This document shows, one piece after another, positions 2,950 through 63,284 of a stretch of DNA of 64,000 bases. Position 1 is the stretch's first letter, and every line of letters starts with the position of its first letter. The notes under the pieces are model-generated. The model was not told the DNA's origin. It saw nothing but the letters and a program-made list of their open reading frames with translations, and searched no databases. The position numbers and the translations under genes are program-made. Source of the DNA: a virus; IMG/VR virus record IMGVR_UViG_3300025154_000076, positions 1 through 64,000 of that record; one strand, written 5' to 3'.

Positions 2950-3182
2950 GTTATTTTTTTACTGAAAAATCAATTATGGAGGAAGGTACAACCATCCTTT
3001 ATGATAACACCACCTACAAAGAGATAGGAAGGATTAACCCATTATTGCATGATAATTTCACTGCAATAATTACTACAGGAAGAAAAAAGGGAAAACAATT
3101 TCATTCCCGGTTTAAATCCATTTGTGAAGGATGGATAGCATCTCATTTTTACCATAAAAAAAAGAAATCATATGCTTACTAA
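2946..3182 (+). CDS. Hypothetical protein
   Basis: ORF track, ATGA overlap with the upstream gene. Confidence 0.55.
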   Translation: MSYFFTEKSIMEEGTTILYDNTTYKEIGRINPLLHDNFTAIITTGRKKGKQFHSRFKSICEGWIASHFYHKKKKSYAY

Positions 3183-3348
3183 TATTTTAATAACTATATT
3201 TTTGGTTTGGGCAGGACTAAGCGCAACCTTAGTAAACAGCAAAACATCATACATTAAATTGTGGACTGTATTTTTTCCGGTAGGACTATTGTTATTTTTT
3301 ATTGTGGCATTGGATGAAGGGTTGAAATTAATTAAGAAGATTTTTTAA
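3172..3348 (+). CDS. Small two-TM membrane protein (58 aa)
   Basis: Hand translation gives MLTNILITIFLVWAGLSATL...WTVFFPVGLLLFFIVAL. Confidence 0.5.
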   Translation: MLTNILITIFLVWAGLSATLVNSKTSYIKLWTVFFPVGLLLFFIVALDEGLKLIKKIF

Positions 3349-3360
3349 CCCCTTATTCCC

Positions 3361-3405
3361 AAAACAAAAAACAGCTATCAGTTAATTGGTAGCTGTTTTT
3401 GTTTT
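3361..3405. terminator. Bidirectional rho-independent terminator
   Basis: aaaacaaaaaacagctatca-gttaat-tggtagctgtttttgtttt, located between convergent operons. Confidence 0.8.
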
Positions 3406-3928
3406 AGGTAAGTTCTAAAATTAGTTTTTCTCTCAAGCGGTATATTTCCATCCAATCACATTTCCCTCCAAGGTCTTTTATCTTATTAGCATAGTTAAGT
3501 CGCTTTTCTATTGTTCCTAAGTCCATGAGATTGTGTTCTTCGGGGGTGAGCAGGATTATGTTTTGTTTTACGAGCCTGTAGAGGGGATAACTTTTCTTAT
3601 TTAGTACATGAGCAAACAAATTTGGGAAATAAGGGGTTCCTGCATATTGGTCTAAAGATATTCCTGTCAAAAAAGATTTATGAACCCTTTCTTTCCATAT
3701 CTCATTGAACATTGCCAATTCTCCTGTAGGTTTTTTAATCTTTGTTTTAACCTTTCCTGTTTTAAGCCTAAAAACATTTGAACAATATTCACATAAACCG
3801 GATGAAAACAAATACCTTGGCCTACCACATCCATATCCCTCTGCCTTGCCGAACCCCTTACATATTTTTTCTTTGCGTTGGATCATATTTTTTGTATGTA
3901 GTGAATTAAATTTTGTTTTAATTTCCAT
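3404..3928 (-). CDS. Putative HNH/NinG-like nuclease with Cys-rich N-terminus
   Basis: FAHVL.KK.YP..R....NI.LLTPEEH motif plus Cys motifs; start uncertain. Confidence 0.5.
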   Translation of the reverse strand: MEIKTKFNSLHTKNMIQRKEKICKGFGKAEGYGCGRPRYLFSSGLCEYCSNVFRLKTGKVKTKIKKPTGELAMFNEIWKERVHKSFLTGISLDQYAGTPYFPNLFAHVLNKKSYPLYRLVKQNIILLTPEEHNLMDLGTIEKRLNYANKIKDLGGKCDWMEIYRLREKLILELT

Positions 3929-3956
3929 TATTTTAAGTTTTAAATGTTTGACTACG

Positions 3957-5309
3957 TTAATATTCTTTTGGCAATTGCTCAATAATTTTCTTAATAAGAT
4001 CTTCATTAGGCTGAAAATCTTTCTTAATACTTACATTAGCTGCCCTGGTTTTAGATGTAGAACGAGGAAATTTATAGGTTACCTTTCCCATGTTATCTGG
4101 TAGTTCAAGTTCATCCCATCTGCCATCAGATGCTTTTTTTATGAACAGATTTAATATCTCTGTTCTTTTTTCATCCAACACCTTGATATAGTTTCTGAAT
4201 ATTTCATCTTGTTTGGCCAATACCAATTCATCAGGGGTTGCCAATATCTTATTTTCAGGAGTTTCTTTCTCCATGAATTTTTCAGATACATAAGCAGGAT
4301 AATTCACCTCTTTGTTTCCCAAAGGTTCACATTCATTTATCACCTGTTGCGCTCTTTCGGCTGTTTCGAAATCCATTATCTTTTCTGCTTCGTTTCTCAC
4401 CGCAATAGCTTGTCTTGCCCATCTCACTTTTTCCATGAACCCATTACCTTGCTTTAACATAAACTGGATAAAGGGTTCATTACGTTCAAATTTATTCACC
4501 TGGAAGATATTGGATCCTATTTTTACAGGTATTTCTGCATAGTCTGATTCTGATACAAGCATTTGAAGTTGGACTTGTGCTTGGTAACTTTTTGGTAAGA
4601 TAAAATTTCCTGAATTGTAGGATTTAAAAAATATATCACAAATAGTATAATCAGCTCCATAGTCTGTTCCATTATTTCTTGCTACATCGGTGGACATTGT
4701 TTTAGCCTCTACAGGGAACCCATTACTTTGTTCTCCTGTTATCAAATTAACACTTCCTTTTCTTGCCCAAAAATCCAATGAAACAAAGAAATTACGATAA
4801 TCCGGATTAACTAAATATCCTTTTACTTCATCTGCCCTTCTGAAAAGAATATCATTCTTTTGTTTTTCCCTATATGATTTGACCCATATCTCATAATCTT
4901 TAATATTAAATTGATCCACTATTTTTGAATATTCCAATACCGGATCATTTCTTAATGCAAGATCAAGTTTTTTTGATATTTCAATATATCCTTCAGGTGT
5001 ATTATCCCAACATTCCCAAAGTTCTTTTACATCATTCTCACCCCTTCTTCCAAAAAACATAGCTGCATTGTCATAACTCTTGTCAATTGCTTTTTCACCT
5101 ATCTTTTGGTCAAATTTCTGTAAGCAAACATCATATTTCCATGTAAGGTAAAGTATTGTGCCTATCTCTGATGCCCCTATACCTCCATCATAGGCTTTTT
5201 GTCCATAAGGAGCTGCCTGATCATCTGTTAGTCCTAAGGTTCTAAATAAGAACCAATCATCACTGTGTGTGGGGATGTTGTAGTTTAAAAGTTTTTTAAA
5301 TATGTCCAT
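3957..5309 (-). CDS. YqaJ/lambda-exonuclease family recombination nuclease
   Basis: Motifs GIGASEI, SLD, EAKT and YQAQVQLQMLVS. Confidence 0.8.
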   Translation of the reverse strand: MDIFKKLLNYNIPTHSDDWFLFRTLGLTDDQAAPYGQKAYDGGIGASEIGTILYLTWKYDVCLQKFDQKIGEKAIDKSYDNAAMFFGRRGENDVKELWECWDNTPEGYIEISKKLDLALRNDPVLEYSKIVDQFNIKDYEIWVKSYREKQKNDILFRRADEVKGYLVNPDYRNFFVSLDFWARKGSVNLITGEQSNGFPVEAKTMSTDVARNNGTDYGADYTICDIFFKSYNSGNFILPKSYQAQVQLQMLVSESDYAEIPVKIGSNIFQVNKFERNEPFIQFMLKQGNGFMEKVRWARQAIAVRNEAEKIMDFETAERAQQVINECEPLGNKEVNYPAYVSEKFMEKETPENKILATPDELVLAKQDEIFRNYIKVLDEKRTEILNLFIKKASDGRWDELELPDNMGKVTYKFPRSTSKTRAANVSIKKDFQPNEDLIKKIIEQLPKEY

Positions 5310-5316
5310 GTTTTTT

Positions 5317-5715
5317 TTAACCTTTTACTTGTTCCAATACATCACCAGGCTTTACCTCTTTTTCATGTAATTCTATTAACTTATCCATATTATAGAACCC
5401 ATTATCTTTGCATCGTTCCTTTTCTTCCATCACAAGATTATACCAATGAAGCCAATTAAGGTGTTTTACATCCCTTTCTACATATCTTTTAAAAGCAGAT
5501 AGGTCTGCATTGCGTTTAGCCTTGTAATCATAGGACATCTTACAAAATTGAACCCACTTTTCAGATAGTTTTTCAATCTCTATCTTAAAACCTATAGTAA
5601 ATTCAATCTTATCCCCATTAACGATTAAATAATTATATTTTAACCCTTCATATTGGCCAATCAAATTATTTAATCGTTTAGCAGATTTTTTTTCTAAAAT
5701 AATCTGATGGTTCAT
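5317..5715 (-). CDS. Hypothetical protein
   Basis: ORF track, operon context. Confidence 0.6.
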   Translation of the reverse strand: MNHQIILEKKSAKRLNNLIGQYEGLKYNYLIVNGDKIEFTIGFKIEIEKLSEKWVQFCKMSYDYKAKRNADLSAFKRYVERDVKHLNWLHWYNLVMEEKERCKDNGFYNMDKLIELHEKEVKPGDVLEQVKG

Positions 5716-7517
5716 TTTTCAAATCTTGTTATTTCAAGTTTTATCAGGGCAAGTTCTCCATCGTTACATTTGTAGGCGAAATCAGATAAATCAAGAAATT
5801 TGTTATATCTCTTTTTTATGATCTTAAATATCTGTTCATCGGTAACATCTGATCTTATATCCCTCAATGCCTTCAGTACATTAAAAGCATCTTCCTTTAA
5901 CCTGTTATCCGGGTTCACCTCCTCTTTTTTTTCTTTAACCACCTCTTTTGACACCTTATTCTGTCCTGTGATCACAACCTTTGTTCCGGTAACTAAGGAT
6001 TCTATTATGGATTCAAGAGGTACATCGTTATTCCATAATTTGACAAAGATAAATTGTATGTCATCCTTGCCTGATATGCCTATTACATCGGCTTGCATGA
6101 ACCCCTTATTCGAGTTAAACATCACATTTTTGCTTGTGAAATCAACACCTGAAGCTACCGGGAAACAAATACATTTTGATTTGCCATCTTTGGTGTTGGC
6201 TATATAAGCATCATCCACACTCTCCACTGTGGTTTGTTTTGTTTTGGATGTAGTGGGTTTATCTGGATTAATAATTACTCCTTCAGGAAAAGGATTCATG
6301 TCTTCTAATTCTTTATATCTTTCAGCAAAAACTTCTTTATTAAAAGTACCCTGATACGTTAATGCTTCACCTTCTTTTACCTCTAATGTCATTCCTTGTG
6401 GATATAATACAAATACATGCTTCTTATTTACAGGTGTTGCCAAAATAGATGCCAGTTCGTCTTTATCGAGCCATTTTATGTGATCAATAATAAGAATTTC
6501 TGTATCCCCCGATTTTGTTGTTCCCATAATTTCATCCCCTATATTTATATCATAGGTGAAATTTCTTTTTGCTGTAAACAGATAACAATCTTTCCCTTCC
6601 TTTGTCTGTTTAACCTCAGAATTGTAAAATAGGGTAATGTATTTATCGTAATTCACCTCATTACCATCTATCACCTCTATTGAACCATTATCATTAATTT
6701 TAAGACTATATTCAGAAGAAGTTCGCATATTCAGAACAATGGCTGAATTAGGAAATCTTTCATCCCATTTTTCATTTTTAATAAGATTGAAAACAGCTTC
6801 ATCCTTATTTTCACTTTCAAAAGCCTCAATTATTCTTTGTGCAAGGGCTAATGTTTTTGTAGGTTTAAAATCTTTTCCAATATCATCTTTTGAAAGATAA
6901 CCCTGTGCAAAGATATATTCCCATGCTTCACCTTCATTTTTAAGATTCATATCATCCAAAGAACGAGTTTCCTTTTTTGGCTGTAACTGACTTTCTTCCT
7001 TTTCCCTATTTACAATCTCATTTATTTTGTCATTTATTTTGTCATTTATTTCATCAATGGAGGTAATGGGTTTCATACCATCATTTTCTACCGAAGTTTT
7101 TCTTTTTTCAACCCTTGAACCCATTATTTCATCTGCCCCGGCAAGCACATCATCAATACCTACCCCTGCATGGGCTAAAGCCTTTGATATTGCCCTTGTT
7201 TGTGCTGTGGACAATGCTGTTTCTATTGTACCATATTCGGAGTCATCAAGAGCCTTAAAATAGCTTGCTTCATATACCTCTTTCGGATAAGGGGTTTCAC
7301 TTTCTTTTCTTAACCAATTAAATGTTACCCTAACAGATACAAGCCATCCTGGTATTGCTTTATCATTGTTATAAAGTGTTTCAAATTTTGTTTCTTTAAA
7401 ATAAACACTGTATGTGTTATCTTCCCGGATTGCTTTTAGTCTTTCTGATGCTGAAGCAACATGAATTGTTGCATTACCTTGTTTTATTTCTATTGTCTTT
7501 ACCTCATTTGATTTCAT
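5712..7517 (-). CDS. Putative Rad52/Sak-like ssDNA-annealing protein with long C-terminal extension
   Basis: ETALSTAQTRAISKALAHAGVGID resembles the Rad52-like SSAP core; it lies next to the exonuclease. Confidence 0.5.
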   Translation of the reverse strand: MKSNEVKTIEIKQGNATIHVASASERLKAIREDNTYSVYFKETKFETLYNNDKAIPGWLVSVRVTFNWLRKESETPYPKEVYEASYFKALDDSEYGTIETALSTAQTRAISKALAHAGVGIDDVLAGADEIMGSRVEKRKTSVENDGMKPITSIDEINDKINDKINEIVNREKEESQLQPKKETRSLDDMNLKNEGEAWEYIFAQGYLSKDDIGKDFKPTKTLALAQRIIEAFESENKDEAVFNLIKNEKWDERFPNSAIVLNMRTSSEYSLKINDNGSIEVIDGNEVNYDKYITLFYNSEVKQTKEGKDCYLFTAKRNFTYDINIGDEIMGTTKSGDTEILIIDHIKWLDKDELASILATPVNKKHVFVLYPQGMTLEVKEGEALTYQGTFNKEVFAERYKELEDMNPFPEGVIINPDKPTTSKTKQTTVESVDDAYIANTKDGKSKCICFPVASGVDFTSKNVMFNSNKGFMQADVIGISGKDDIQFIFVKLWNNDVPLESIIESLVTGTKVVITGQNKVSKEVVKEKKEEVNPDNRLKEDAFNVLKALRDIRSDVTDEQIFKIIKKRYNKFLDLSDFAYKCNDGELALIKLEITRFEK

Positions 7518-7572
7518 GTGTGTGTTTTTTAATTATTAATTATTTTAAACCCCTTATTCATTCTCATTTTTT

Positions 7573-8019: not shown

Positions 8020-8055
8020 TACTATTGTTTTTAATTATTAATTAGTTTAAACCCA

Positions 8056-8445
8056 TTATTCATTCACCACTTCTATATTCCAAGCACTACTATAAATAGT
8101 TTTGATTTCTTTTCCGTTTTTAACATAATACATCAACTCAAAATCATCTGTAATCTTATGACCCAATATTCTGCCACTACTTATTTTTTCTGTAACATAC
8201 AAACGTTGTGATCTTGCTTCTCCTATTGATCTTAATGTAATTAACGGTTTTTTCTCCGCATTTACAAAGGTTCCTTCCATTAAGATAGTTCCTAATAAAT
8301 GATTTTTAATAAAAAACTTAAAATTATTATTAGTTTCTTTTAAAATATTAAACCGAGAACCTAAATCTTGTATGTATTCGTTTAAATTTACAACTTCTCT
8401 TTCAAGTTTTTCTATACTAACTCTTAGTTTTCTTTTTGTTTCCAT
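8056..8445 (-). CDS. Hypothetical coiled-coil protein (paralog B)
   Basis: Starts METKRKLR; shares G.ILG..I...E..YYV....W.IE.VNE with paralog A. Confidence 0.65.
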   Translation of the reverse strand: METKRKLRVSIEKLEREVVNLNEYIQDLGSRFNILKETNNNFKFFIKNHLLGTILMEGTFVNAEKKPLITLRSIGEARSQRLYVTEKISSGRILGHKITDDFELMYYVKNGKEIKTIYSSAWNIEVVNE

Positions 8446-8488
8446 GATTATTGTTTTTAAATTATTATTTTATTGAACCCCTTATTCC

Positions 8489-9361
8489 TTAAAATGGCAA
8501 ATCATCTGATTCTTCCGGCATATTAGGTCTTTCTTTTTTTTGTTCAGCAGATGGCTTTTTATCAAACTCACCTGAACTCAATGATTCAGCATATAAAGGA
8601 TTATTCTTTTCAAAATCTTTCACCTTTTCATCCACCTCATTTTGTTTTTCATTGATAATTTGTTCTTCTGTAACCCCTGTATTGTTCATATAGTTTTTCC
8701 ATGCCAAGAACATATCAATGTATTCTTCCACCTTAAATTGCTCTACCACCTGATCAGTAATTTCTTTTCCTGCATCAATATAAGCATAGGCAAGAGGTGA
8801 TCTGGCTATTTTTAATGCCTTATGAACCCTGTCTGAAAACCTGTTGTCGGTTTTATCATAAACCTCTGGATTAATAAGAATCATTTTATCCAACCAAACT
8901 TCATCTTTTATCCTTTTTGACTGATCTATGTCAGTTGCAAGAATTGTGGTAATTGACATTAACCCGGCTTTTGTTGCTACCCACAACACCCTTTTCATAG
9001 ATGGTTTTTTATCAATTTCCTGTACCATATGAGCAACCACCTGATCGCAATCTCCAAGAATCTCTATTTTACCTGAAGGGCTAAACATAGCTATCTTGTT
9101 CTGCTTATTAAGAAATTGAGTGGAATAATATGACCCACCATTTGTTCCATGATTATTGTCAAAGCATGTTAATTGCAATGTTCTCCCGATAAGAACACCT
9201 TCAATTGTCTTTTGAAAGTTTACCGTTTTTTCTCCATCGTAATATGTGAATATTGCAACATTGTCTTTGTATTTTACATCCACACGATAATCAGGGGTTA
9301 ATTTTGGATAATTTTCACCACCATGTTGACTATCTTTTAATTTTTCTTTCCATGTACTCAT
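8489..9361 (-). CDS. Putative single-stranded DNA-binding protein
   Basis: Acidic C-terminal tail EESDDLPF; located in the recombination block. Confidence 0.55.
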   Translation of the reverse strand: MSTWKEKLKDSQHGGENYPKLTPDYRVDVKYKDNVAIFTYYDGEKTVNFQKTIEGVLIGRTLQLTCFDNNHGTNGGSYYSTQFLNKQNKIAMFSPSGKIEILGDCDQVVAHMVQEIDKKPSMKRVLWVATKAGLMSITTILATDIDQSKRIKDEVWLDKMILINPEVYDKTDNRFSDRVHKALKIARSPLAYAYIDAGKEITDQVVEQFKVEEYIDMFLAWKNYMNNTGVTEEQIINEKQNEVDEKVKDFEKNNPLYAESLSSGEFDKKPSAEQKKERPNMPEESDDLPF

Positions 9362-9418
9362 TATTTTTAAGTTTTAAATTGTTTATATAATTGAAAATTT
9401 ATTTTGTAACCCTTTATT

Positions 9419-10003
9419 CTAATATATTGTTAATACTAATCCTCTTGATTTTTTATCTATTGACCATCCGTCTGGAATGGGTTCAATAAAATTAGTGTTA
9501 TCATCTTTAAGCCATCCATATTTTACCATTAAGTCCATAGGAAATTGTTGCATATTAGGGTAGTCAAAGGTTTGTTTGCTTAACCGGATGAAATGAAACC
9601 CTATTCTTAATGGAAATTCCTTACCCTCTCTTAATTGATCAAATAGTTTCTTTTGATATTTCCACCATTTGAATGATAATGCCTCATATTCCATACATGC
9701 CCTTGATTTAATTAGCATCCTTTTATTGCCATTGGTAATTATCCTTTTAGAATTCTTACTACTGGTTACTGAATAAGGAATGTATATTTTACCCTGCTGC
9801 TTGTATTCATTTATTTTGTACATGATGAAGGTTTCTTCCATTTGCATTGGTATCCTTCTTTTTACCCTTTTACCTTCTACCATCTTTTCAAATTCAGGAA
9901 GTTGTTTCTGTGTTTTAAACCCCTTACCGTCAAATGCTATTTTCCCTGTCTTTAGTGCTTCCCTAAATTCCTCCACACTATAACTTGTTTTTCCGTTGCT
10001 CAT
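9419..10003 (-). CDS. RusA-like Holliday junction resolvase
   Basis: SSKNS.R motif and acidic catalytic pattern FDYPN...PMDLM...GW.KDDN. Confidence 0.6.
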   Translation of the reverse strand: MSNGKTSYSVEEFREALKTGKIAFDGKGFKTQKQLPEFEKMVEGKRVKRRIPMQMEETFIMYKINEYKQQGKIYIPYSVTSSKNSKRIITNGNKRMLIKSRACMEYEALSFKWWKYQKKLFDQLREGKEFPLRIGFHFIRLSKQTFDYPNMQQFPMDLMVKYGWLKDDNTNFIEPIPDGWSIDKKSRGLVLTIY

Positions 10004-10423: not shown

Positions 10424-10780
10424 TCATAATTCAAATTGGCTTAAATCATTTAATTGTAAATAGTCTACAATATCAATCTGTACATCTTTAATTTCAAATT
10501 GGTATATCTGTTTTGTACTTGCATCTACACATATCACTGTTGGTACTTCTAAAATATCCCTTTTTAATCCTTCTGAACCCATTATTTCCCTTGTTTGCTT
10601 TCCCCAACGAAGGAAATATGCAGGTTTATAGACAGGCTCGGTGGCTTCTAAGGCATTAATTTCTCTTGCCATTCGATCATGTTTTTCATAATTGGGTTCC
10701 CTTAATAAGGCCTCTCTCATTTTATCCAAACGAACCTCTTTCTCATTATAATAAATCATATTTATCTTGCCTATACTCAT
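10424..10780 (-). CDS. Hypothetical protein
   Basis: ORF track. Confidence 0.6.
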   Translation of the reverse strand: MSIGKINMIYYNEKEVRLDKMREALLREPNYEKHDRMAREINALEATEPVYKPAYFLRWGKQTREIMGSEGLKRDILEVPTVICVDASTKQIYQFEIKDVQIDIVDYLQLNDLSQFEL

Positions 10781-54587: not shown

Positions 54588-54613
54588 AAATTAAGGATAA
54601 AACGAAAAATAAA

Positions 54614-55042: not shown

Positions 55043-55052
55043 CTATTGACTG

Positions 55053-55089
55053 TAACTATGTTATAATGTCAGGTCAAAAAATTGCACCA
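55053..55089 (-). mobile_element. Putative attI-like site (copy 2)
   Basis: 31/37 identical to 1972-2008; lies 10 bp after the stop of 54614-55042. Confidence 0.5.
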
Positions 55090-55145
55090 AAAATTAATTC
55101 AAAATAAAGGGTTATAACCCATTATTCACATTAAAAACACATACC

Positions 55146-55352: not shown

Positions 55353-55354
55353 CA

Positions 55355-55449
55355 ACAAGTGTGGGCATGACTACAAATAAACAAAAGCTGGTTGGTTCCA
55401 AATTTCGGAGCAATTCGGAGGTCTTGGTTCGATTCTCGCCCACACTTGT
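55355..55449 (+). ncRNA. Structured, tRNA-like element
   Basis: 12-bp closing stem acaagtgtgggc/gcccacacttgt, an internal hairpin, and GGTTCGATTC near the 3' end. Confidence 0.3.
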
Positions 55450-55492
55450 ATCTTCTCAAAATAAAGGGTTCGATTTATTAACAATTAAATAT

Positions 55493-56023
55493 ATGAAAAC
55501 TATGAAACTATTAGCAGACATCCTTGATGAACTAACACCTAATGAATTTTTTATCCTTGTCTTTGTGGCAAGAGAAGCAACAAATGGTATAACCTATTTT
55601 TCAATGAGTGAAGCACAGAAAGTTTCAAAAATTGATGATGTAGAAGAAATAAAAAGATGTATTGATAGGCTTATTGAACTTGAGTTTGTTGAATTCAGAG
55701 ATGTGGAGGGTCAATACATTAAAATTAAAGTGATCAATAAAAAAATTAAACCTTCCAATTTAAGGCATAAACCCTTTATTCCCCCAACGTTTGAGGAGAT
55801 AAAAGCATACCTTGAAATGGTTAAGGTGAGAAATGGGTATGATATTCCACCGGAAAGGGTTTATGAATACTATGGTGATAGTAATTGGATAGACAGCCAG
55901 GGTAATCCTGTAAAAAATTGGAAAGCCAAAATATTGAACAATTGGCTTAAGCCACAGTATAAGGTTAATACCAAAAATAATAATGCTAAAGATAACACCT
56001 ACAAACAGTGGGGCAAAGCCTAA
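55493..56023 (+). CDS. Phage replication initiator/replisome organizer-like protein
   Basis: N-terminal wHTH and C-terminal FIPPTFEEI..Y...YEYY...NW......VKNWKA; upstream of DnaB. The start is likely MKTMK rather than the GTG at 55361. Confidence 0.65.
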   Translation: MKTMKLLADILDELTPNEFFILVFVAREATNGITYFSMSEAQKVSKIDDVEEIKRCIDRLIELEFVEFRDVEGQYIKIKVINKKIKPSNLRHKPFIPPTFEEIKAYLEMVKVRNGYDIPPERVYEYYGDSNWIDSQGNPVKNWKAKILNNWLKPQYKVNTKNNNAKDNTYKQWGKA

Positions 56024-56174
56024 ATAAAGGGTTCAAACTAAAATTTTACAACCATGTTTAAATTAGCTAAAATACTTAATTACATATCCGAAAACAGGGA
56101 TTGTGTTTACATTTTAATATTTGCCTTATTGGCTGTAATAGCTATTATTGCTGTTGTTTTTTATTCTATAAGTT

Positions 56175-56504
56175 ATGGTACAAACCCCTTATAAATGGAA
56201 TAAATACATAGCCAATAAGGGCAAATGTGATTTCTGTGGGGTAAAGAGGGATTATTATAACTGCCGGATAACAACAGATGGGTTTCTTGCTTGTCGCACC
56301 TGTTATAATAATAAAGGGTCAAAAACAGTGGAGGAGTTCAGGGAATATATAAGGGGTTGCATCCGCAAACTTAAAAACAGGAGGATGCCACCGGAATACA
56401 GGATAGCCTCACGCTATGGAGCTGCAACACATAACCATTATTTTCTATTCTCTTTTGAAAGAAAACTAAAAAAAGCAAAAGAAAAACTCAGGAACAAAAA
56501 ATGA
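56175..56504 (+). CDS. HNH-like Zn-finger protein
   Basis: CDFCG ... LACRTC.N.KG.KTVEEFR pattern. Confidence 0.55.
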   Translation: MVQTPYKWNKYIANKGKCDFCGVKRDYYNCRITTDGFLACRTCYNNKGSKTVEEFREYIRGCIRKLKNRRMPPEYRIASRYGAATHNHYFLFSFERKLKKAKEKLRNKK

Positions 56505-57967
56505 AACAGGATTTACTCTCTATATTGGATTATGACAAGATACCTCCACAGGATATTGCAATGGAAGAAGCAGTGATTGGTGGGATATTAATAGAATCAT
56601 TAGCATTTGATTTAGTGGTAGATATTTTAACCCCTGATTCATTTTATAAAGAAACCCATAAATTCATATATCAGACTATATTCAACCTCAACAAAAAAAA
56701 CAAAGAGATTGATATTCTAACGGTAAAAGATGAACTTCAAAATAATGGGTTATTAGAAAAGATTGGTGGGGCATACTACCTAACTACCTTAACACAAAGA
56801 ACATCATCTATTGCCTCCATACAGGAATGGGCATTAAGGATAAAAGAAAAATACATACGAAGATTATTAATACAAAAATCAACAGAAACAAGAGATTCAG
56901 CCTATGACGAAAGCAAGGACTTAGAACACACACTTGACATGCTTAATATTACGATTGATACTGTTAATAAAGAAACAACAATCGGAACAGGATTAACCCA
57001 TATATCCAGCATAGCTGTTAAAGCAAGCGAAGATTTAAACCATAAGATTGAAAAAGCCAATAGAGGAGAGGTTCTTGGTGTACCTACCGGACTTACAAAG
57101 CTTGATAGTATGACATTAGGGTGGTTGCCAGGGCTTCTTATTATCATTGCAGCCAGGCCTTCATTGGGTAAAACAGCCTTTATGATTAAATTCGCTAAGA
57201 TAGCAGCTAAAAATGGGTATAAAGTGTTAATCTTCTCTATTGAGATGAATGAAATAAGTTTGGTTCATAGGCTGATTCTTTCTGAAACCACTGTTGACCA
57301 TGAAAAATACAGATCAGGAAAAGGCATAACTGAAGATGAAATGATGCAAATAAAGGGTTCATCAAAAATCATTGCGGATCTGCCTATTTACATTGATGAT
57401 AATCCCTATGCCACAGTATCATATATGCGAAGCCATGCAAGAATAAGAAAGAAAGCAGGGGAATGTGATATGATCATGGTTGACTATTTACAAATTGTAA
57501 CCCCACAAAAAGAAAAAGGCAGATCAAGGGATGAAGAAGTGGGAACCATTACCTCAGGGTTAAAAGCCATTGCCAAAGAACTTAAAGTTCCGGTTATTGC
57601 CCTTGCTCAATTAGGAAGAAAAGTGGAGGACATGAAAGACAATAGACCCAAGCTTTCCACATTAAGAGAATCAGGAAACATAGAGGCTGATGCTGATATG
57701 GTATTGGGAATACACCGACCAAATTATTATGGTGATTTATTTATTGATGAATATGTAGGAGGTAGATCAATAAGTGTATCTGCAATAAATAGGGGACATC
57801 TTATTGTACTTAAACATAGGGATGGGCCTGTGGGATATATCCCATTTTATTATTCCGATAATTTAGCAGTGATAGAAGATGCGGATTATAAAGAAAGGGT
57901 TGCAGTAGATTATGACCCTGATACATATATTAAACCAGTGGGAGATGATGAAGATCTTCCTTTTTAA
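56501..57967 (+). CDS. dnaB: Replicative DNA helicase
   Basis: PPQ...E.AV.G, AARPSLGKT, VDYLQ, LAQL.R and LRESG.IE.DAD motifs. Confidence 0.95.
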   Translation: MKQDLLSILDYDKIPPQDIAMEEAVIGGILIESLAFDLVVDILTPDSFYKETHKFIYQTIFNLNKKNKEIDILTVKDELQNNGLLEKIGGAYYLTTLTQRTSSIASIQEWALRIKEKYIRRLLIQKSTETRDSAYDESKDLEHTLDMLNITIDTVNKETTIGTGLTHISSIAVKASEDLNHKIEKANRGEVLGVPTGLTKLDSMTLGWLPGLLIIIAARPSLGKTAFMIKFAKIAAKNGYKVLIFSIEMNEISLVHRLILSETTVDHEKYRSGKGITEDEMMQIKGSSKIIADLPIYIDDNPYATVSYMRSHARIRKKAGECDMIMVDYLQIVTPQKEKGRSRDEEVGTITSGLKAIAKELKVPVIALAQLGRKVEDMKDNRPKLSTLRESGNIEADADMVLGIHRPNYYGDLFIDEYVGGRSISVSAINRGHLIVLKHRDGPVGYIPFYYSDNLAVIEDADYKERVAVDYDPDTYIKPVGDDEDLPF

Positions 57968-57982
57968 ACCCATTATTCAAAC

Positions 57983-58357
57983 ATGATAAATTTTTTACTA
58001 CATAAAGAAAACGCTAAATTCCTAAAGTTCCTGTATGATTGTCCAAAGGATAAATGGTTAACAATAAATAAGGGGTCATACAAACAATGGGATGAAATAA
58101 TTGTTAAGATAATGAATAATGGGTTCTTTAGATTTGAGTGGATTTTTAATTTATCCCCGGAGCAGATGGTGATGATTGCAAAATTCTTCGAGATACCCCT
58201 TCCTGAATGGCATAAGGCAATACATAATGGGAAAATACATAAAGACAAGATGTTTGATGATGACAAAAAAAGACACCTGTATTTAACTATCAAAAAATTC
58301 ATCTTTAAATTTTCTAAGGATAATACACAATTTATAAAAGAATCAGTTAAATTTTAA
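57983..58357 (+). CDS. Hypothetical protein
   Basis: ORF track. Confidence 0.55.
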   Translation: MINFLLHKENAKFLKFLYDCPKDKWLTINKGSYKQWDEIIVKIMNNGFFRFEWIFNLSPEQMVMIAKFFEIPLPEWHKAIHNGKIHKDKMFDDDKKRHLYLTIKKFIFKFSKDNTQFIKESVKF

Positions 58358-58361
58358 AAAC

Positions 58362-58940
58362 ATGGAACAAAAAATCAAACCTGAAGAATTTTTTCTTTAC
58401 AAAGGAAAGACCTATGTAGCCAGGATGGTTACAGACACAAAGGTGGTGGGTGTATTAAGACGATCATCAGAAACAAAAACAGGGTTTATGGAATGTGATA
58501 TTTCAGAAATAGAACGCCCTGTGCAGGTGATATGCAAAATGCTTGCGGTACCTTCAAAGCCAAAGAAAGGAGATATAATCAGGGTATGGGCTAAAGGTTC
58601 TGATATACCCACTATCTCCCGAATGGTAATGCCAATAGAGAATAAGGGGTTTCTCGAAAATCATAAGGTAGAGAGATTGTTGCCTTTCTTTTTCGGATTG
58701 GAACACCGGGAAATACTCGAAGGAAGTTATTTTAGCTTATCACAATTTGCATTATCAGAATCAATGCACAAATGGCTACTTGGAAAACCAACACCTGAAG
58801 GAGCAAAACATCTTAAAGATAATTACATAGTAGAGGTAGAATTTACTAAAGGAATGGTAGTGGTGCATAATGTGGAAGGGGAATCCATTCCTGTGATTAA
58901 AACTAATATCACCGACGGGGAAAATGAATGGTATGTGTAA
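58362..58940 (+). CDS. Hypothetical protein
   Basis: ORF track. Confidence 0.6.
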   Translation: MEQKIKPEEFFLYKGKTYVARMVTDTKVVGVLRRSSETKTGFMECDISEIERPVQVICKMLAVPSKPKKGDIIRVWAKGSDIPTISRMVMPIENKGFLENHKVERLLPFFFGLEHREILEGSYFSLSQFALSESMHKWLLGKPTPEGAKHLKDNYIVEVEFTKGMVVVHNVEGESIPVIKTNITDGENEWYV

Positions 58941-59131
58941 CGTTTAGTATATGAAAAAAATTTATTTAACAACAAGGGCATATCTCATTCAGTAGAATGG
59001 TTGAAATGCTAAATGAGGAGGCAAAACGTGAAATAACAGCAGAAGAAGCTGGATTATTTTCAAGACCTGAATGTGTTTGTGAACTACCCACACACTAAAA
59101 AGATGTGTGGGCTTCCTGCACAACGCATAGC

Positions 59132-60250
59132 CTAATGGCTTACGTTAGCGTACAAAGGGTTGTCCCTAACCCCAAAATTCTTTATATTATATGCAGCATT
59201 CAAATCCCTATCTATTGAATTATTACACTTATCACAATTGTAAGTTCTATCTGAAAGTTTTAAATCTTTCTTGTGATTTCCACAATTAGAACATACTTTA
59301 CTGCTTGGTTCAAATCTGCCAATTACAACAAGATTTTTACCTTGCCATTCAGTTTTATATTCAAGCATTGTTCTTAATTGTCGCCAACCCATTTCAGATA
59401 TGGCTTTAGCTAAATTATGGTTCTTAACCATATTACTAACTGCTAAATCTTCTAATACAATTGTGTTATACGTGTTTACTAATTCAGTAGATATTTTATG
59501 CAAGTAATCAGTCCTTTGGTTACGGATTTTTTCTTGCAATAATGCTACTTTTAATTTTTGTTTTTCTCTATTTATTGAACCTTTCTGTTTTCTTGCAAAG
59601 CTTCTCTGTTCAACTCTTAATCTTCTTTGTTGCGATTTGAAAAAGTTTTTATTTTCATACACCACACCATCAGAAGTAATTGCTAAATCTTTAATCCCAA
59701 AATCAATACCAACAGATGTTTCGGATTTAATTGGTTTTTGCTTTGGTTTTTCTATTTGTGTATCAACCAATATTGATACAAAGTATTTACCAGTAACAGT
59801 TTTGCTTAATGTAACTCTTTTTGGTAATCCTTTGAACAATCTATGATAATCAATAGCAACCTCTTTTAATTTAGGTAATTTTAAAATGTTGTTATCAAAA
59901 TCAACCTCAAAACCTTGTGGAAATGTAACTGACTGCTTAGAGTATCTATTCTTGTATTTAGGAAACTGACCTTTGCCTTTAAAAAAGTTTTGATATGCTG
60001 TATCTAAATTGATAATACTATGTTGTAGTATTTGACTTGGACATTCTTTAATGTAATCAAATTCCTTTCTTAATTCTGGAAGTTGTTTAATTAAATCATA
60101 TTTAGATATTGATGTTTTATTTGAAGCATACGCAACAGTCTTGGTCTCTAAACCAAGATTATATACCAATCTATTTACACCAAAATACCTTTGTAATTGG
60201 TTTTTTTGGTCATCCGTTGGGAATATTCTGTATTTGTATCCTTTAAGCAT
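59132..60250 (-). CDS. tnpB: TnpB RNA-guided endonuclease
   Basis: N-terminal YKYRIFPT; RuvC motifs GIDFG, LEDL and DRD.NAA; Zn finger CSNC...CDKC. Confidence 0.95.
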   Translation of the reverse strand: MLKGYKYRIFPTDDQKNQLQRYFGVNRLVYNLGLETKTVAYASNKTSISKYDLIKQLPELRKEFDYIKECPSQILQHSIINLDTAYQNFFKGKGQFPKYKNRYSKQSVTFPQGFEVDFDNNILKLPKLKEVAIDYHRLFKGLPKRVTLSKTVTGKYFVSILVDTQIEKPKQKPIKSETSVGIDFGIKDLAITSDGVVYENKNFFKSQQRRLRVEQRSFARKQKGSINREKQKLKVALLQEKIRNQRTDYLHKISTELVNTYNTIVLEDLAVSNMVKNHNLAKAISEMGWRQLRTMLEYKTEWQGKNLVVIGRFEPSSKVCSNCGNHKKDLKLSDRTYNCDKCNNSIDRDLNAAYNIKNFGVRDNPLYANVSH

Positions 60251-60396
60251 ATATTATTAAATAGTCTAAACTTTTGTAAAAGTACAACATTTTTATCTAA
60301 ATTACAAGTTTTGGTTAAATTTATTTTATTTGATACCGTATTTTGTTTAAATCATTCCGTCTTTGGTTGTAAATAATTTAAACAAAATACTACATT

Positions 60397-60801
60397 ATGC
60401 AATCAAATTACATTTCTACAAATCATTCAAAACACTATTTAAAATGTCATCTAATTCTCGTTACTAAGTATCGTAAAAATATGTTAGTTGGTCAATTAAA
60501 TGATGATTTAAAAGATATATTCAGTTCCATAGCAGATAACTCAGATTTTGAAATAGAAGTTATGGAGTCTGATGTAAACCATATTCATTTCTTAATTAGG
60601 TACATACCTCGCCTATCTATATCCCAAATGGTTCGTAGGCTTAAACAAGAATCTACTCGTCAGTTATGGTTATTGCATCATACTACTTTACGTCAGTATT
60701 ATTGGTATCGTAAAATACTTTGGAGTGATGGGTTCTTCGTTTGTTCAATAGGTGAAGCAAGTCCAGATACTATCCGTCAATATATTTTAAGCCAAGGTTA
60801 A
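60397..60801 (+). CDS. tnpA: IS200-family HUH (Y1) transposase TnpA
   Basis: H.ILVTKYR, HIH (HUH), LWSDGFF and IRQYI motifs. Confidence 0.95.
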   Translation: MQSNYISTNHSKHYLKCHLILVTKYRKNMLVGQLNDDLKDIFSSIADNSDFEIEVMESDVNHIHFLIRYIPRLSISQMVRRLKQESTRQLWLLHHTTLRQYYWYRKILWSDGFFVCSIGEASPDTIRQYILSQG

Positions 60802-60867
60802 TCATACCTTTGTCGCTTACATCCCATCCACGCTAAAAAGCGATGAATGGGTTTTACGCTCCTTTTT

Positions 60868-61026
60868 ATCAATAGGTATGATAATAACAGCAGCAGGAAC
60901 TAAGCATCCCAGAGAAAGCCTGCTTCCATTTTCATTATAGTGTTCACAATCCATACATTCAACATCTTTTGTCATTGTAGCTGTATTCAAATGATCACAC
61001 TCCGCATTAATATAATCACATCTCAT
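60868..61026 (-). pseudogene. Small Cys-rich ORF interrupted by the IS605 insertion
   Basis: The ORF runs into the IS left end at ...IPID (TTGAT). Rejoining with the 59078 flank continues in frame (KHIQVLK...FY*). Confidence 0.4.
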
Positions 61027-61074
61027 AATTTATTATTTTAAGATTTAATAACTTCATTTCATCAGAATAATGGG

Positions 61075-61365
61075 TTACAGATAAAAGCTTTCAAACATTA
61101 TTACTACAAATGACCTTACATATTCAAATAATTCTTTTTTTCCTTCCGGCATTTCCTTTCCTGGTTCACAACTCATAAAATATATCAGGGCTGCATCGGT
61201 GTGCAGGGCAGAGGCTATATCTGTTAATGTAGTATATGTAGGATTAAATCTACCATTTTCTATTTGGTTCATAGATGTTGTACTCAATCCACACATCTTG
61301 GCCAGTTCTTTTTGTGATAACCCTTTATTCTTTCTTAGTTTTGTTATTGTAGCTCCTATATTCAT
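61075..61365 (-). CDS. XRE-family HTH transcriptional regulator
   Basis: LRKNKGLSQKELA...LS...NQIENG..NP motif. Confidence 0.9.
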   Translation of the reverse strand: MNIGATITKLRKNKGLSQKELAKMCGLSTTSMNQIENGRFNPTYTTLTDIASALHTDAALIYFMSCEPGKEMPEGKKELFEYVRSFVVIMFESFYL

Positions 61366-61410
61366 AACTTTATAATTTAAAAATTTAAGACAAACTTAAT
61401 AAAAATTACA

Positions 61411-61944
61411 TTAATTCCCGATCGGCGCATACATTTTGTATCTTATCGTGTAACCATTAATCATATTTCCTTTTTTTATGGCCCGATATACCTTCATCCT
61501 ACTTACCCCAAAGTGCTTCAATAGGTCATTTATACTACTAAAATAAAGGGTTTCAGAAGAATTAAAGGCTTCCATCTTTCGCATTGTACCCTTATCATTA
61601 ACCAAAGCAGCTATATCTTCAGGCATCTTCAGATCATAAAAGGTTTTTTCATCAATAGTGTTGAATTTACAAAATGTCTTTTTTACATATTCAAGGTTTT
61701 CAACGCAATTATTCATCCTATTGCAATCTATATGACTTATAGCATACCCATCAGGCATTGGTTCCAGAAAGTGAGAAGAAACCAAAACATGGGCATAATA
61801 ATGGGTTCCTTCTATAAAATACCTAACATAACTATACCTCCCCACAATAATGGGTTTCAAATATCTCTTTAATACATAAGAATAAACCAACCCCATATCT
61901 GTTATTCCATATCTATTACCCATTCCTATCATATACACTATCAT
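61411..61944 (-). CDS. HNH homing endonuclease-like protein (HNH_3 plus NUMOD1-like C-terminus)
   Basis: H.LV..HF, HIDCNRMNN.VENLEY, and C-terminal F.SI....KHFG motifs. Confidence 0.7.
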   Translation of the reverse strand: MIVYMIGMGNRYGITDMGLVYSYVLKRYLKPIIVGRYSYVRYFIEGTHYYAHVLVSSHFLEPMPDGYAISHIDCNRMNNCVENLEYVKKTFCKFNTIDEKTFYDLKMPEDIAALVNDKGTMRKMEAFNSSETLYFSSINDLLKHFGVSRMKVYRAIKKGNMINGYTIRYKMYAPIGN

Positions 61945-62653
61945 AACTACATCTATTTAATTAAAACCTATTAATACACTCAATACAAATCCATCCTCTG
62001 TTATTCGATATTTTCCATCTGTCCCTCTTATTATTATTCCTTTATTCATAATTAATCACATTTTAATTATACAAATATATGCAATTAATACAATATATCC
62101 AAACTTATTTATGTTTCACTTATATTATACCCATATTATTAGATGTACAAAAATAAAATATAAAATAAAAATGGGATTTTGTGGATGTAGTCGATATATA
62201 TAGGGTACACACCAGATGTGGCGCAAAATGCGGATTTGCGGGGGTGTGGGGGTGTTTTCGGAATCGCATAAAACAAACGAAATGCAGTGCTAATAATATA
62301 TATATGATCTTGCCTATTGCGTGGAAAGCATATATTGTTATATATTGTATGAATCATAATCTTAATTATTGGGCTTATTCCGTTTCCCTAACTGCCTGAT
62401 AATCACTCGTGCAAGACAAATGAGAGTATAAGAATGCAGAAAGCGAATGTAAATAGGGCAATTGTGGACAGGTTGGCAGGTGTTCAGGTTGTGTCCTGAT
62501 GGTTGTGTAATTAGTAGAAAAATTGGCATCCAGGGCGCAAGATAGGACACAAAAAAAGTAATAATTACCCTTAATTCATTGAATTTACGTATATTTATTA
62601 AATTTGAATCACAATTTTAAATTGAAAAAAATTAAATAAGCAATAAAACAACA

Positions 62654-62995
62654 ATGTCAACAAGAAAACATAAGCAGCATAGCTATATAATAGATACAAT
62701 ACTAAGGAGCTATAATATAAGTAATACAATAGGTCTTAAGTATAATGAGATAATACTCTTAGTTTCATTATTTTATAGAACCCTTTATTTTGATTGTACT
62801 TTTAAAAGTACAGTTGAAAACATAACTATAATAACAAACATAAGATATAATACTGTCAGTATGCTATTAAATGACTTAATCAAATCTAAATATGTAATTA
62901 AAATCGGATTAATATATAATATTAGCGATAAAGGTAAACATCTCATAAAAAACTATCTGGCTGTAGTAGAATCTACTAACTTATATTTAAAATAA
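62654..62995 (+). CDS. Winged-HTH protein
   Basis: TVS..LNDL.K..YV.K....Y.ISDKGK pattern; TAAATTTG at 62599-62606 upstream. Confidence 0.6.
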   Translation: MSTRKHKQHSYIIDTILRSYNISNTIGLKYNEIILLVSLFYRTLYFDCTFKSTVENITIITNIRYNTVSMLLNDLIKSKYVIKIGLIYNISDKGKHLIKNYLAVVESTNLYLK

Positions 62996-63284
62996 TCCGA
63001 AACCCCTTATTTCCATATTTTCCTCATCCTTCGCAAAAATCCGACAAGTCGCACAACCGGGTCAATATAAAAGCTGATCTATATCATGCTGTTGTATGTT
63101 CTATAACAGGTATTAAGTTGATGGAACCCATTATTTTGATTTTTCATGAATTTTTATTCATTTGTAATTATTTGAATATCAATAGATAAAGTATTTTTTA
63201 ACAAAATAAATGTTAAAATATTTGCAGAATGATTGTAATGGGTATAGATTTACATAACAAATTCATTCACTAAAAAAATTAGCA

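Follow-up and report, generated by a model that had tools for sequence, protein, structure and literature searches.

A lineage-specific, chromosome-polar DNA word saturates the genome of a tailed phage from groundwater

The stretch of DNA analysed here, referred to as the window, comprises the first 64,000 bases of the 72,079-base virus record IMGVR_UViG_3300025154_000076, such that window and record coordinates are identical. The record is rated 100% complete by CheckV and belongs to a tailed phage that encodes the large terminase subunit TerL, a portal protein, virion proteins and an amidase as well as a DnaB-like helicase, RNase H, a RecE/YqaJ-like exonuclease and two family-2 glycosyltransferases. 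A crude map of longest open reading frames (ORFs) places 92 ORFs on 93% of the record. Dispersed over ORFs and intergenic regions is the ten-base word ATAADGGGTT (D = A, G or T), which occurs as ATAATGGGTT, ATAAGGGGTT and ATAAAGGGTT and is the subject of this work.

With regard to abundance, the window contains 65 exact matches on both strands and the whole record 74, i.e., about one per kb. A preliminary description prepared by eye had put the number at about 60, and every coordinate it named is among the matches. In 100 dinucleotide-preserving shuffles of the window, the mean was 1.38 (standard deviation 1.43, maximum 6), in keeping with the single copy expected there from composition, and none of the shuffles reached 65. 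Analytic Markov expectations for the record were 1.5, 1.9, 3.0, 6.1, 10.5 and 33 for orders 1 to 6, the higher orders absorbing the motif itself, and the most frequent genomic 9-, 10-, 11- and 12-mers without exception represent parts of the word. ORFs carry 49 copies as compared with 7.19 ± 2.23 (maximum 13) under a synonymous-codon shuffle that keeps proteins and per-gene codon usage (n = 200) and 1.05 (maximum 5) under a codon-order shuffle (n = 200). The enrichment thus amounts to 25- to 50-fold against low-order nulls and to 7-fold against the synonymous-codon shuffle. As the latter leaves only about seven of the 49 coding copies, the word is a signal at the level of DNA rather than RNA or protein and is under strong selection. 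In agreement with the core of the preliminary description, which took the word for a signal in the DNA maintained by selection throughout the native genome and discarded codon usage as its cause, this is borne out by the codon shuffle, the use of five frame contexts, the absence of the motif from mobile parts and residue changes in TerL. Neither of the two outcomes that were named there as speaking against such a signal was observed: enrichment persists under codon-preserving nulls and under Markov nulls to order 5, and related and AT-rich phage DNA is not enriched in the motif. A peptide or codon artefact was rejected, given that several frame contexts are used and codon-preserving nulls are exceeded.

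Placement of the copies is far from uniform with respect to genes. Twenty-five of the 74 reside in the intergenic 7.0% of the record, a 5-fold enrichment (binomial P = 1.4e-11), and in 12 of these 25 the upstream stop codon is overlapped or at most 3 nt away, the stop codon often being the TAA within the word or formed by a T and the AA that opens its complement. Relative to the upstream gene, 12 intergenic copies have the same and 13 the opposite direction. Coding copies are divided into 24 in sense orientation (in frames 0 and 1, a stop codon resulting in frame 2) and 25 in antisense orientation (3, 11 and 11 by frame), making up five reading-frame or peptide contexts. The block 14989-47530, which encodes structural and packaging functions, has 0.49 copies per kb, other motif-bearing DNA 1.79. 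Copies are placed where they cost least: between genes, joined to stop codons or within protein segments that vary. In TerL, the family-conserved sequence M-T-N-Y is replaced by L-T-H-Y, the very pair of substitutions needed to accommodate the complement of the word, neither of which is present in a TerL relative with 71% identity. Distances between copies follow an exponential-like distribution, 18 neighboring pairs being no more than 60 nt apart vs. 15.4 expected, and the densest windows of 1.2-3 kb, which start at 55104 near putative replication genes, are not significant (P = 0.21-0.44), so that both regular spacing and clustering were rejected. Five exact inverted pairs with starts 12-21 nt apart can form hairpins, four of them intergenic, while 64 of the 74 copies are unpaired. 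The pair 51665/51683 was called as a terminator-like hairpin with a T tail (51694-51663, minus strand) and, as judged by eye, the pair 39117/39138 is followed by a T run on the gene strand. A few inverted pairs may have been co-opted as hairpin terminators; other terminators of the phage are devoid of the motif.

The individual copies of the window are distributed as follows. The first, 3036-3045(-) (ATAATGGGTT), is antisense in ORF 2946-3182(+), and an intergenic copy at 3347-3356(-) (ATAAGGGGTT) overlaps the stop codon of ORF 3172-3348(+). Antisense copies are found in ORF 3404-4006(-) (3629-3638(+), ATAAGGGGTT) and in the RecE/YqaJ-like ORF 3957-5309(-) (4468-4477(+), ATAAAGGGTT). ORF 5317-5715(-) contains a sense copy in frame 1 (5396-5405(-), ATAATGGGTT), while ORF 5712-7517(-) contains two sense copies, in frame 1 (6100-6109(-), ATAAGGGGTT) and frame 0 (7118-7127(-), ATAATGGGTT), and an antisense copy (7287-7296(+), ATAAGGGGTT); 30 nt before the ATG of this ORF and 15 nt after a stop codon, an intergenic copy is located at 7548-7557(-) (ATAAGGGGTT). 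Four further intergenic copies lie close to stop codons: in 8050-8059(-) and 12237-12246(-) (both ATAATGGGTT), the TAA of the word is the stop codon of ORFs 8056-8445 and 12243-12443, respectively, whereas 8476-8485(-) (ATAAGGGGTT) follows the stop of 8489-9361 after 3 nt and 9408-9417(-) (ATAAAGGGTT) that of 9419-10003 after 1 nt. Between them, ORF 10424-10780(-) bears a sense frame 0 copy (10576-10585(-), ATAATGGGTT), ORF 10777-11193(-) an antisense (10871-10880(+), ATAAAGGGTT) and a sense frame 1 copy (11132-11141(-), ATAAGGGGTT) and the DnaA-domain-IV ORF 11186-11791(-) an antisense copy (11647-11656(+), ATAAGGGGTT). Sense frame 0 copies follow in ORF 12891-13565(-) (13289-13298(-) and 13457-13466(-), both ATAAGGGGTT) and in ORF 14034-14264(-) (14159-14168(-), ATAATGGGTT).

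In the structural and packaging block, the 2195-aa ORF 14989-21576(-) comprises sense copies in frame 0 (15942-15951(-) and 21060-21069(-), both ATAAGGGGTT) and frame 1 (19877-19886(-), ATAAGGGGTT) and two antisense copies (18830-18839(+) and 19757-19766(+), both ATAATGGGTT). ORF 28932-29528(-) has a sense frame 0 copy (29141-29150(-), ATAAAGGGTT), ORF 29525-30394(-) an antisense copy (29798-29807(+), ATAATGGGTT), and the TAA of the intergenic copy 30404-30413(-) (ATAAGGGGTT) serves as stop codon of ORF 30410-30826, the next ATG being 9 nt on. A sense frame 1 copy in ORF 30939-31862(-) (31657-31666(-), ATAATGGGTT) and an antisense copy in ORF 31866-35708(-) (35235-35244(+), ATAAAGGGTT) precede the intergenic inverted pair 39117/39138, formed by 39117-39126(+) (ATAAAGGGTT) and 39138-39147(-) (ATAAGGGGTT) and located after the capsid-like ORF 39159-40613. 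ORF 40686-42113(-) carries a sense frame 1 copy (40759-40768(-), ATAAGGGGTT). Within TerL (44589-46856(-)), the antisense copy 44712-44721(+) (ATAATGGGTT) is the one that encodes LTHY, and it forms an inverted pair with 44732-44741(-) (ATAAGGGGTT; sense frame 0, IRGL). ORF 46856-47530(-) has a sense frame 1 copy at 47430-47439(-) (ATAAGGGGTT).

A plus-rich arc, treated below, begins with an antisense copy in ORF 47514-48242(-) (47613-47622(+), ATAAGGGGTT), which has a second one at 48163-48172(+) (ATAATGGGTT). Four copies of ATAATGGGTT follow, antisense in ORF 48254-49183(-) (49079-49088(+)), sense frame 1 and antisense in ORF 49180-50313(-) (49205-49214(-) and 49481-49490(+), respectively) and antisense in ORF 50310-50882(-) (50834-50843(+)). 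The intergenic pair 51665/51683 consists of 51665-51674(+) and 51683-51692(-) (both ATAAGGGGTT), and 52293-52302(-) (ATAAGGGGTT) is situated in the 337-nt divergent intergenic region 52236-52572. Another intergenic pair, 55104/55116, has its arms, 55104-55113(+) (ATAAAGGGTT) and 55116-55125(-) (ATAATGGGTT), separated by 2 nt. ORF 55361-56023(+) contains a sense frame 1 copy (55461-55470(+)) and an antisense copy (55770-55779(-)), and its stop abuts the intergenic copy 56024-56033(+), one of only two unpaired intergenic plus copies (all three ATAAAGGGTT). ORF 56175-56504(+) harbors an antisense (56183-56192(-)) and a sense frame 0 copy (56349-56358(+); both ATAAGGGGTT), and the DnaB-like helicase (56501-57967(+)) sense copies in frame 1 (56742-56751(+), ATAATGGGTT) and frame 0 (57350-57359(+), ATAAAGGGTT); 57967-57976(-) (ATAATGGGTT) overlaps the helicase stop codon, with the next ATG 6 nt on. 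Sense frame 1 copies are present in ORF 57983-58357(+) (58116-58125(+), ATAATGGGTT) and ORF 58362-58940(+) (58642-58651(+), ATAAGGGGTT). The second unpaired intergenic plus copy, 61067-61076(+) (ATAATGGGTT), overlaps the stop codon of the XRE-type helix-turn-helix (HTH) ORF 61075-61365(-), which itself contains a sense frame 1 copy (61319-61328(-), ATAAAGGGTT). Three antisense copies in the HNH ORF 61411-61944(-) (61543-61552(+), ATAAAGGGTT; 61798-61807(+) and 61847-61856(+), both ATAATGGGTT) conclude the plus-rich arc. Thereafter, 62779-62788(-) (ATAAAGGGTT) is antisense in ORF 62654-62995(+), and two intergenic copies opposed to the gene direction, 63001-63010(-) (ATAAGGGGTT), 5 nt after the stop of the same ORF, and 63125-63134(-) (ATAATGGGTT), lie in the region 62996-63284.

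Two parts of the genome lack the word. One is an arc of 7,115 nt (68000-72079 plus 1-3035) with no exact copy vs. 8.1 expected (Poisson P = 3e-4); the other is a complete element of the insertion sequence family IS200/IS605 (58941-60850) with TnpB at 59132-60250(-) and a Y1 TnpA at 60397-60801(+). The absence of copies from the cassette array and the IS605 element, as stated in the preliminary description, is confirmed, the word being excluded from the mobile DNA of the phage. In species-representative genomes, the closest TnpB proteins are 44-49% identical (the 49% match is partial) and stem from Calidithermus and Paenibacillus, members of unrelated phyla. In the part of the motif-free arc in the window, 1-3035, small ORFs alternate with imperfect inverted repeats of attC-like appearance to form an array; the repeat ends resemble integron attC core sites, with a conserved ..GCCTAAC.. 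pairing with ..GTTAGGC... One array unit is repeated across the ends of the record, and a D12-class adenine methyltransferase (record 69193-69924) is included. Judged by these repeats, the array would be an integron-like cassette array on a phage.

The word itself extends beyond ten bases. It is preceded by A in 58 and by G in 13 of the 74 copies, and its central base is G in 29, T in 30, A in 15 and C in none (G 12, T 8 and A 5 in the 25 intergenic copies). Significant preferences exist at -4 (G/C), -2 (purine), +10 (not G), +11 (A/C) and +14 (A/C), resulting in a contiguous, asymmetric footprint from -4 to +14 of about 19 bp around a core of at least 11 bp (R-ATAA-D-GGGTT). No conservation beyond -4/+14 was detected out to ±70, by which a longer repeat or a miniature inverted-repeat transposable element was rejected, and no second element was found at a fixed distance from the motif. 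The one-off variants noticed early on are real: six one-substitution forms are 3- to 13-fold enriched over order-3 expectations, i.e., GTAAD.. (11 vs. 1.2), AGAAD.. (20 vs. 1.7), ATCAD.. (11 vs. 1.6), ..GTGTT (10 vs. 1.8), ..GGGTC (8 vs. 0.6) and ..GGGTA (7 vs. 2.4), where five of the 11 ATCAD copies, located at 33876-34510, belong to a single 138-nt tandem protein repeat and are not independent. Together with the exact copies they add up to 141 sites or about two per kb. Intergenic sites are exact in 25 of 28 cases, whereas coding DNA carries 49 exact and 64 variant sites, which indicates that the exact word is the optimum and that coding DNA carries compromises. The repeat just mentioned is present in five copies of 138 nt (46 aa) at 33876-34519 in ORF 31866-35708(-), each with an ATCAD variant.

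Orientation of the word proved to be informative. All 74 exact copies are divided into 44 on the minus and 30 on the plus strand, while unpaired intergenic copies show a ratio of 15 minus to 2 plus (binomial p = 0.002; four intergenic hairpin pairs left out) that is 8:1 beside plus-strand and 7:1 beside minus-strand genes. After removal of the five pairs, the optimal circular split with two breakpoints sets 47613-61847 (16+:6-) apart from the rest (9+:33-), with a segmentation permutation P of 0.010 for exact copies and 0.012 with variants. When variants are included, a sharp flip is apparent, from 14+:4- between 56024 and 61847 to 14-:3+ between 62779 and 70286. The flip interval, 61857-62778 near 62.3 kb, contains the AT-rich divergent intergenic regions 61945-62180 and 62551-62653. 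In minus-strand genes, there are 8 antisense and 2 sense copies within the arc as opposed to 16 sense and 10 antisense copies outside, and plus-strand genes at 62.6-68 kb contain 4 antisense copies and no sense copy. Since the sense/antisense ratio of minus-strand genes reverses inside the arc, orientation follows the chromosome and not transcription: free copies are polar relative to the chromosome, not to genes. The original statement that copies occur in both orientations thus applies overall, both strands being used, but not to copies free of coding constraint.

The motif is lineage-specific. Among 80 related loci from IMG/VR (TerL at most 36% identical, the best IMG/VR value for the phage being 36%; 1,133,165 bases in total), only two copies were present, and five related genomes (72-77 kb; completeness rated at 100% for four, G + C 31% in one) contained 0, 0, 1, 0 and 1 copies. 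No comparably enriched 8-mer was found in the 36 related loci of at least 15 kb. On account of this near-absence, a family-wide trait was rejected. Proteins with 71% (TerL) and 95% (DnaA-domain-IV protein) identity exist in other collections. The five related genomes match 26 of the 92 ORFs, nearly all of them structural or packaging genes, and subtraction of gene content was uninformative. Scans of IMG/VR for pairs of the word yielded 88 convergent, 86 tandem and 108 divergent stretches. Motif-dense contigs from IMG/VR and metagenomes were set aside because the 10-mer sits there in a longer intergenic element, taken as an unrelated promoter. Large viral contigs (up to 375 kb, 44-52% G + C) feature 40-55 copies of ATAAGGGGTT in a conserved 17-18-nt element that is strictly intergenic, about 25 nt upstream of Shine-Dalgarno sequences, follows the genes in orientation and forms convergent pairs at operon ends. 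We take this element to resemble the promoters that single-subunit phage RNA polymerases use; a phage-encoded RNA polymerase probably recognizes it as its promoter. Other multi-copy IMG/VR matches were dismissed as local tandem arrays. A contig of a giant-virus metagenome-assembled genome in IMG/VR (35% G + C) contains the 10-mer six times in dispersed form over a stretch of about 4 kb. A literature search for the literal motif returned primers and unrelated sequences only.

Concerning the phage and its host, the best cultured TerL relatives are phages of Flavobacterium, Cellulophaga and Tenacibaculum (26-28% identity), and cultured phages gave no megablast match to the record. Together with the similarity of the encoded DnaA domain IV to Bacteroidota DnaA and the scarcity of Shine-Dalgarno-like words, these relatives suggest that the host is probably a member of the Bacteroidota. 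The record is present in groundwater metagenome runs of four studies, with identical sequence and no variant letters at motif sites in the runs compared; no RNA runs are listed among the datasets containing it. No tyrosine integrase was found (PF00589, six frames of the record; serine recombinases were not searched for), and for this reason lysogeny is not evident; an XRE-type HTH regulator is encoded. No tRNAs were found in the record, and no primase or DNA polymerase was recognized among the ORFs searched, the replication genes found being those for the DnaB-like helicase and RNase H. A Shine-Dalgarno-like word precedes just 8 of the 92 starts. Runs of ACACACA occur 4-20 nt upstream of the starts at 7517, 14009, 30826, 39095, 42113 and 51631, mostly those of structural genes, and may be a translation enhancer in a genome without Shine-Dalgarno sequences. 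The block 47514-52235(-) adjoins the terminase genes, encodes the two family-2 glycosyltransferases and an MptE-like/DUF115-type protein, lies within the plus-rich arc and is missing from the five related genomes; it may serve glycosylation of virion proteins or DNA.

Several encoded proteins come into consideration as readers of the word or as enzymes responding to it, those at 11186, 52573, 54402 and 62654 having been named as candidate binders in the preliminary description. Two are candidate duplex binders: a winged-helix (HTH_36-like) protein of a type common in phages, specified by the first gene of the rightward block (52573-53385(+)), and the product of the gene upstream of the DnaB-like helicase (55361-56023(+)), which has no family match and, from gene position and a reading of its sequence, is a candidate replisome organizer. 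The protein encoded at 54402-54587 is a ribbon-helix-helix (RHH) protein, the XRE-type HTH protein is encoded at 61075-61365(-), and the 62654 protein had no family match. The RecE/YqaJ-like exonuclease (3957-5309(-)) is a candidate phage-encoded end-processing enzyme, and the HNH_3 endonuclease (61411-61944(-)), which adjoins the flip point, a candidate nicking or cutting enzyme. The protein encoded at 11186-11791(-) (Bac_DnaA_C, E 2.3e-21) consists of 201 aa, with an unfamiliar N-terminal half and a DnaA domain IV that shares 50-67% identity with DnaA of Bacteroidota. In the recognition helix the two are identical, one base-contact position being different (E vs. A in hosts), and for this reason the phage protein probably reads ordinary DnaA boxes and not the motif; it may allow the phage to occupy host DnaA boxes. 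The motif does not align with the DnaA box, and the box pattern is not enriched in the window (8 vs. 4.9 expected). For Prevotella, an oriC with E. coli-type DnaA boxes is predicted in the accessible part of PMC4755523.

Polarity points to a reader travelling along DNA with a fixed direction, and we therefore tentatively rank first the possibility that the word is a polar, Chi-like signal for a helicase-nuclease entering at DNA ends. Known Chi sites are G-rich, asymmetric words, and in them the G-rich strand ends 3' at the entry point. The phage lineage would have accumulated the word under selection as a signal for an enzyme tracking along DNA from an end, either a host helicase-nuclease of the AddAB/RecBCD type or the phage's own RecE-like exonuclease system; a Chi-like site would attenuate or redirect the enzyme, such that motif-rich phage DNA survives and motif-free DNA does not. 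The G-rich word would lie on the strand ending 3' at each side of about 62.3 kb, and by analogy with known Chi sites the physical DNA ends, or an exposed end of replication or packaging intermediates, are predicted to map near 62.3 kb. In common with Chi, the word is short, asymmetric and G-rich, over-represented at the DNA level in coding and non-coding regions, chromosome-polar and specific to one reader lineage. Bearing on a polarity of the Chi type relative to DNA ends or replication are the 15:2 ratio and the segmentation P of 0.010-0.012 on the one hand and the 30 of 74 exact copies on the opposite strand on the other. The motif is missing from relatives that presumably infect other hosts, as expected for a signal matched to one reader, and the phage encodes an end-processing exonuclease. 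In addition, no known RecBCD inhibitor was detected among the 60 ORFs compared with Pfam or PHROGs, although most of these ORFs had no match of any kind. Of the functions listed in the preliminary description, i.e., genome coating, Chi-like activity and packaging, none is thereby established, but the choice is narrowed, polarity favoring a Chi-like signal or tracking enzyme over an orientation-blind coating protein.

A number of observations weigh against this interpretation. Chi sites comprise 5-8 nt and are read as single-stranded DNA by RecC or AddB, while the present core has no fewer than 11 bp, and base preferences extend over -4 to +14, more like the footprint of a duplex-binding protein. 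The word is far denser and more enriched than Chi in any phage known to us, and a literature search for over-representation of Chi in phage genomes found nothing related. Its polarity is a statistical tendency and not a strict rule, the plus strand bearing 30 of the 74 exact copies; boundaries of the arc were set post hoc, and the one near 47.5 kb lacks sharpness. From GC skew at third positions, no clean replication signal emerged; the skew lends the strand switch inside the arc no independent support and neither confirms nor contradicts a replication cause, and a terminus-like repeat was not found at 61.8-63.4 kb. A Chi sequence read by the host is predicted to be enriched in the host's own core genome. 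The IMG/VR pair scans revealed no dispersed motif-dense genome of the same kind, and no comparable motif-dense genome or bacterial contig was seen among the at least 119 metagenome stretches listed. Taken together, this is weak evidence against a host-specified signal common to other phages of the host; as the metagenome matches number at least 119 and the result refers to those listed, a motif-rich host may still exist.

The footprint also fits a different, possible if rather doubtful explanation, the nearest competitor of the first, according to which a phage-encoded protein binds the approximately 140 sites as duplex DNA and marks, compacts or protects phage as opposed to host or mobile DNA or loads replisome or terminase on it. 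The binder would be a monomeric or two-domain protein, with the products of 52573-53385 and 55361-56023 as candidates. A contiguous, asymmetric site of about 19 bp with graded tolerance of near-variants agrees with a protein bound to the duplex, the phage encodes several candidates for DNA binding, and the densest windows start beside putative replication genes; moreover, uniqueness of the motif among the 5 related genomes and 80 related loci, with none like it in the IMG/VR scans, suits a phage-encoded reader. An orientation-blind architectural binder, however, does not predict chromosome-level polarity, the density peak at 55 kb is not significant, irregular spacing gives no sign of phased coating, and no relatives of the candidate binders were found in IMG/VR, so that no homologue can be linked to a motif elsewhere. 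Stated more broadly, a virus-encoded reader could use the 11-mer as a self-recognition code that separates the phage chromosome from host and mobile DNA, an idea that we regard as conceivable without counting on it. Such a code could, for example, gate the phage's own exonuclease or license packaging or replisome loading, and would account for related phages and other viruses without the word.

A recognition site of a phage nicking system is unlikely. According to the accessible part of PMC3517423, T5, phiKMV-like and tf-like phages have localized single-strand interruptions at a consensus of at least 9 nt on one strand, in phage tf a 9-nt consensus occurs 14 times, always on the same strand, and consensus variants are lineage-specific. 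The present word shares with these sites, as far as they are described there, a phage-specific, over-represented and strand-biased consensus of at least 9 nt in a podophage-sized genome; 15 of 17 unconstrained copies share a strand, and the gene for an HNH endonuclease adjoins the flip point. The known sites number 4-14, all on one strand, whereas 40% of the copies (30 of 74 exact ones) lie on the other strand here, density is about 3-fold that of tf, and at the five inverted pairs opposed nicks would turn into double-strand breaks.

Decidedly unlikely, too, is a role as stoperator-like operators or global roadblocks, where a phage repressor on many asymmetric sites silences or times transcription. 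In the accessible part of PMC9283540, repressors of Cluster A mycobacteriophages are described as monomers with two DNA-binding domains that occupy more than 20 asymmetric 13-mers across the genome, placed in promoters and short intergenic spaces and oriented with transcription. Many lineage-specific copies of an asymmetric site over a phage genome, 5-fold intergenic enrichment and regulators of the XRE and RHH types would conform to such a system. Stoperators, though, number about 20-36, belong to temperate phages and are co-oriented with transcription in promoters or short spacers; the word discussed here forms 74-141 sites, two-thirds of them inside ORFs (49 of the 74 exact copies), its orientation is unrelated to transcription (intergenic 12 same : 13 opposite, coding 24 sense : 25 antisense), and no tyrosine integrase or sign of lysogeny is apparent.

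We also consider it very unlikely that the phage carries a DNA uptake sequence (DUS) or uptake signal sequence (USS) of a naturally competent host. The DUS of Neisseriaceae and USS of Pasteurellaceae have a density of about one per kb. The word resembles them in its length of about 10 nt, in density, in the use of both strands and several frames, in gene-end enrichment and in inverted pairs within putative terminators. In these two families, about half of the uptake sequences reside in predicted terminators, including 75-90% of those that form inverted repeats, and a reading-frame bias exists inside genes, as stated in the accessible part of 10.1101/2025.10.24.684340. Uptake sequences belong, however, to chromosomes of competent bacteria, where they spread by a drive of uptake plus recombination that acts on resident DNA, while the word is found in a phage without tyrosine integrase or sign of lysogeny that has little in common with the bacterial records seen. 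Strong chromosome-level polarity is not one of their defining traits, the search for the literal motif produced nothing relevant, no motif-dense bacterial contig was among the metagenome stretches listed, and no uptake sequence is known to us from Bacteroidota. The accessible part of the SuMu phage paper contains no mention of uptake sequences.

Highly improbable is the use of the word as lagging-strand priming site by a primase with a long recognition sequence and a site every 1-2 kb on the displaced strand. Minus-strand sites occur every 1.6 kb (exact) or 0.8 kb (with variants), a spacing of about the size of Okazaki fragments, polarity is independent of transcription, and the 3' end of the word and its tolerated variants presumably resemble short recognition sites of phage DnaG-type primases. 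On the other hand, known primases need only 3-5 nt, a primase or DNA polymerase was not recognized among the ORFs searched, and around 55 kb, where the putative origin region lies, orientation does not switch. That the word is an element of promoters or terminators, or results from bias in codons, peptides or composition, is scarcely credible and largely refuted, as the called hairpin, the T run after 39117/39138 and the promoter-like use of the same 10-mer in large IMG/VR contigs stand against 64 of 74 copies being unpaired, half of the coding copies being antisense, no second element at a fixed distance, other terminators without the motif and codon- and composition-preserving nulls that fail by 7- to 50-fold. 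The remaining probability is assigned to something not listed here.

A final comparison concerns the FtsK-orienting polar sequences (KOPS) and SpoIIIE recognition sequences (SRS) of bacteria, polar, G-rich words pointing toward a single chromosomal site, which the winged-helix domain of the FtsK/SpoIIIE translocase reads as duplex. The phage word is likewise G-rich, polar and convergent on one point; KOPS and SRS are bacterial chromosomal words and about ten times sparser, and for the phage no FtsK-like motor was seen, its packaging ATPase being a classical TerL.

Genome-saturating words are known from bacterial chromosomes in the form of uptake sequences, Chi and KOPS, whereas in phages only sparse, intergenic or single-strand sets such as stoperators and nick sites have been known. 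The phage described here carries such a word at the density of bacterial uptake sequences and under selection strong enough to alter conserved TerL residues. The site of 19 bp is a ready bait for finding its reader, and the flip near 62.3 kb constitutes a testable prediction on the genome ends. If the reader is a host helicase-nuclease, the word would be the first Chi-type sequence for a lineage of Bacteroidota and a clear example of how a phage escapes degradation from DNA ends through nothing but its sequence. With a reader encoded by the phage, the system would represent a new kind of viral self/non-self discrimination, and a self-recognition code of this sort, if true, would be the first self-tag system akin to uptake sequences or Chi that belongs to a virus.

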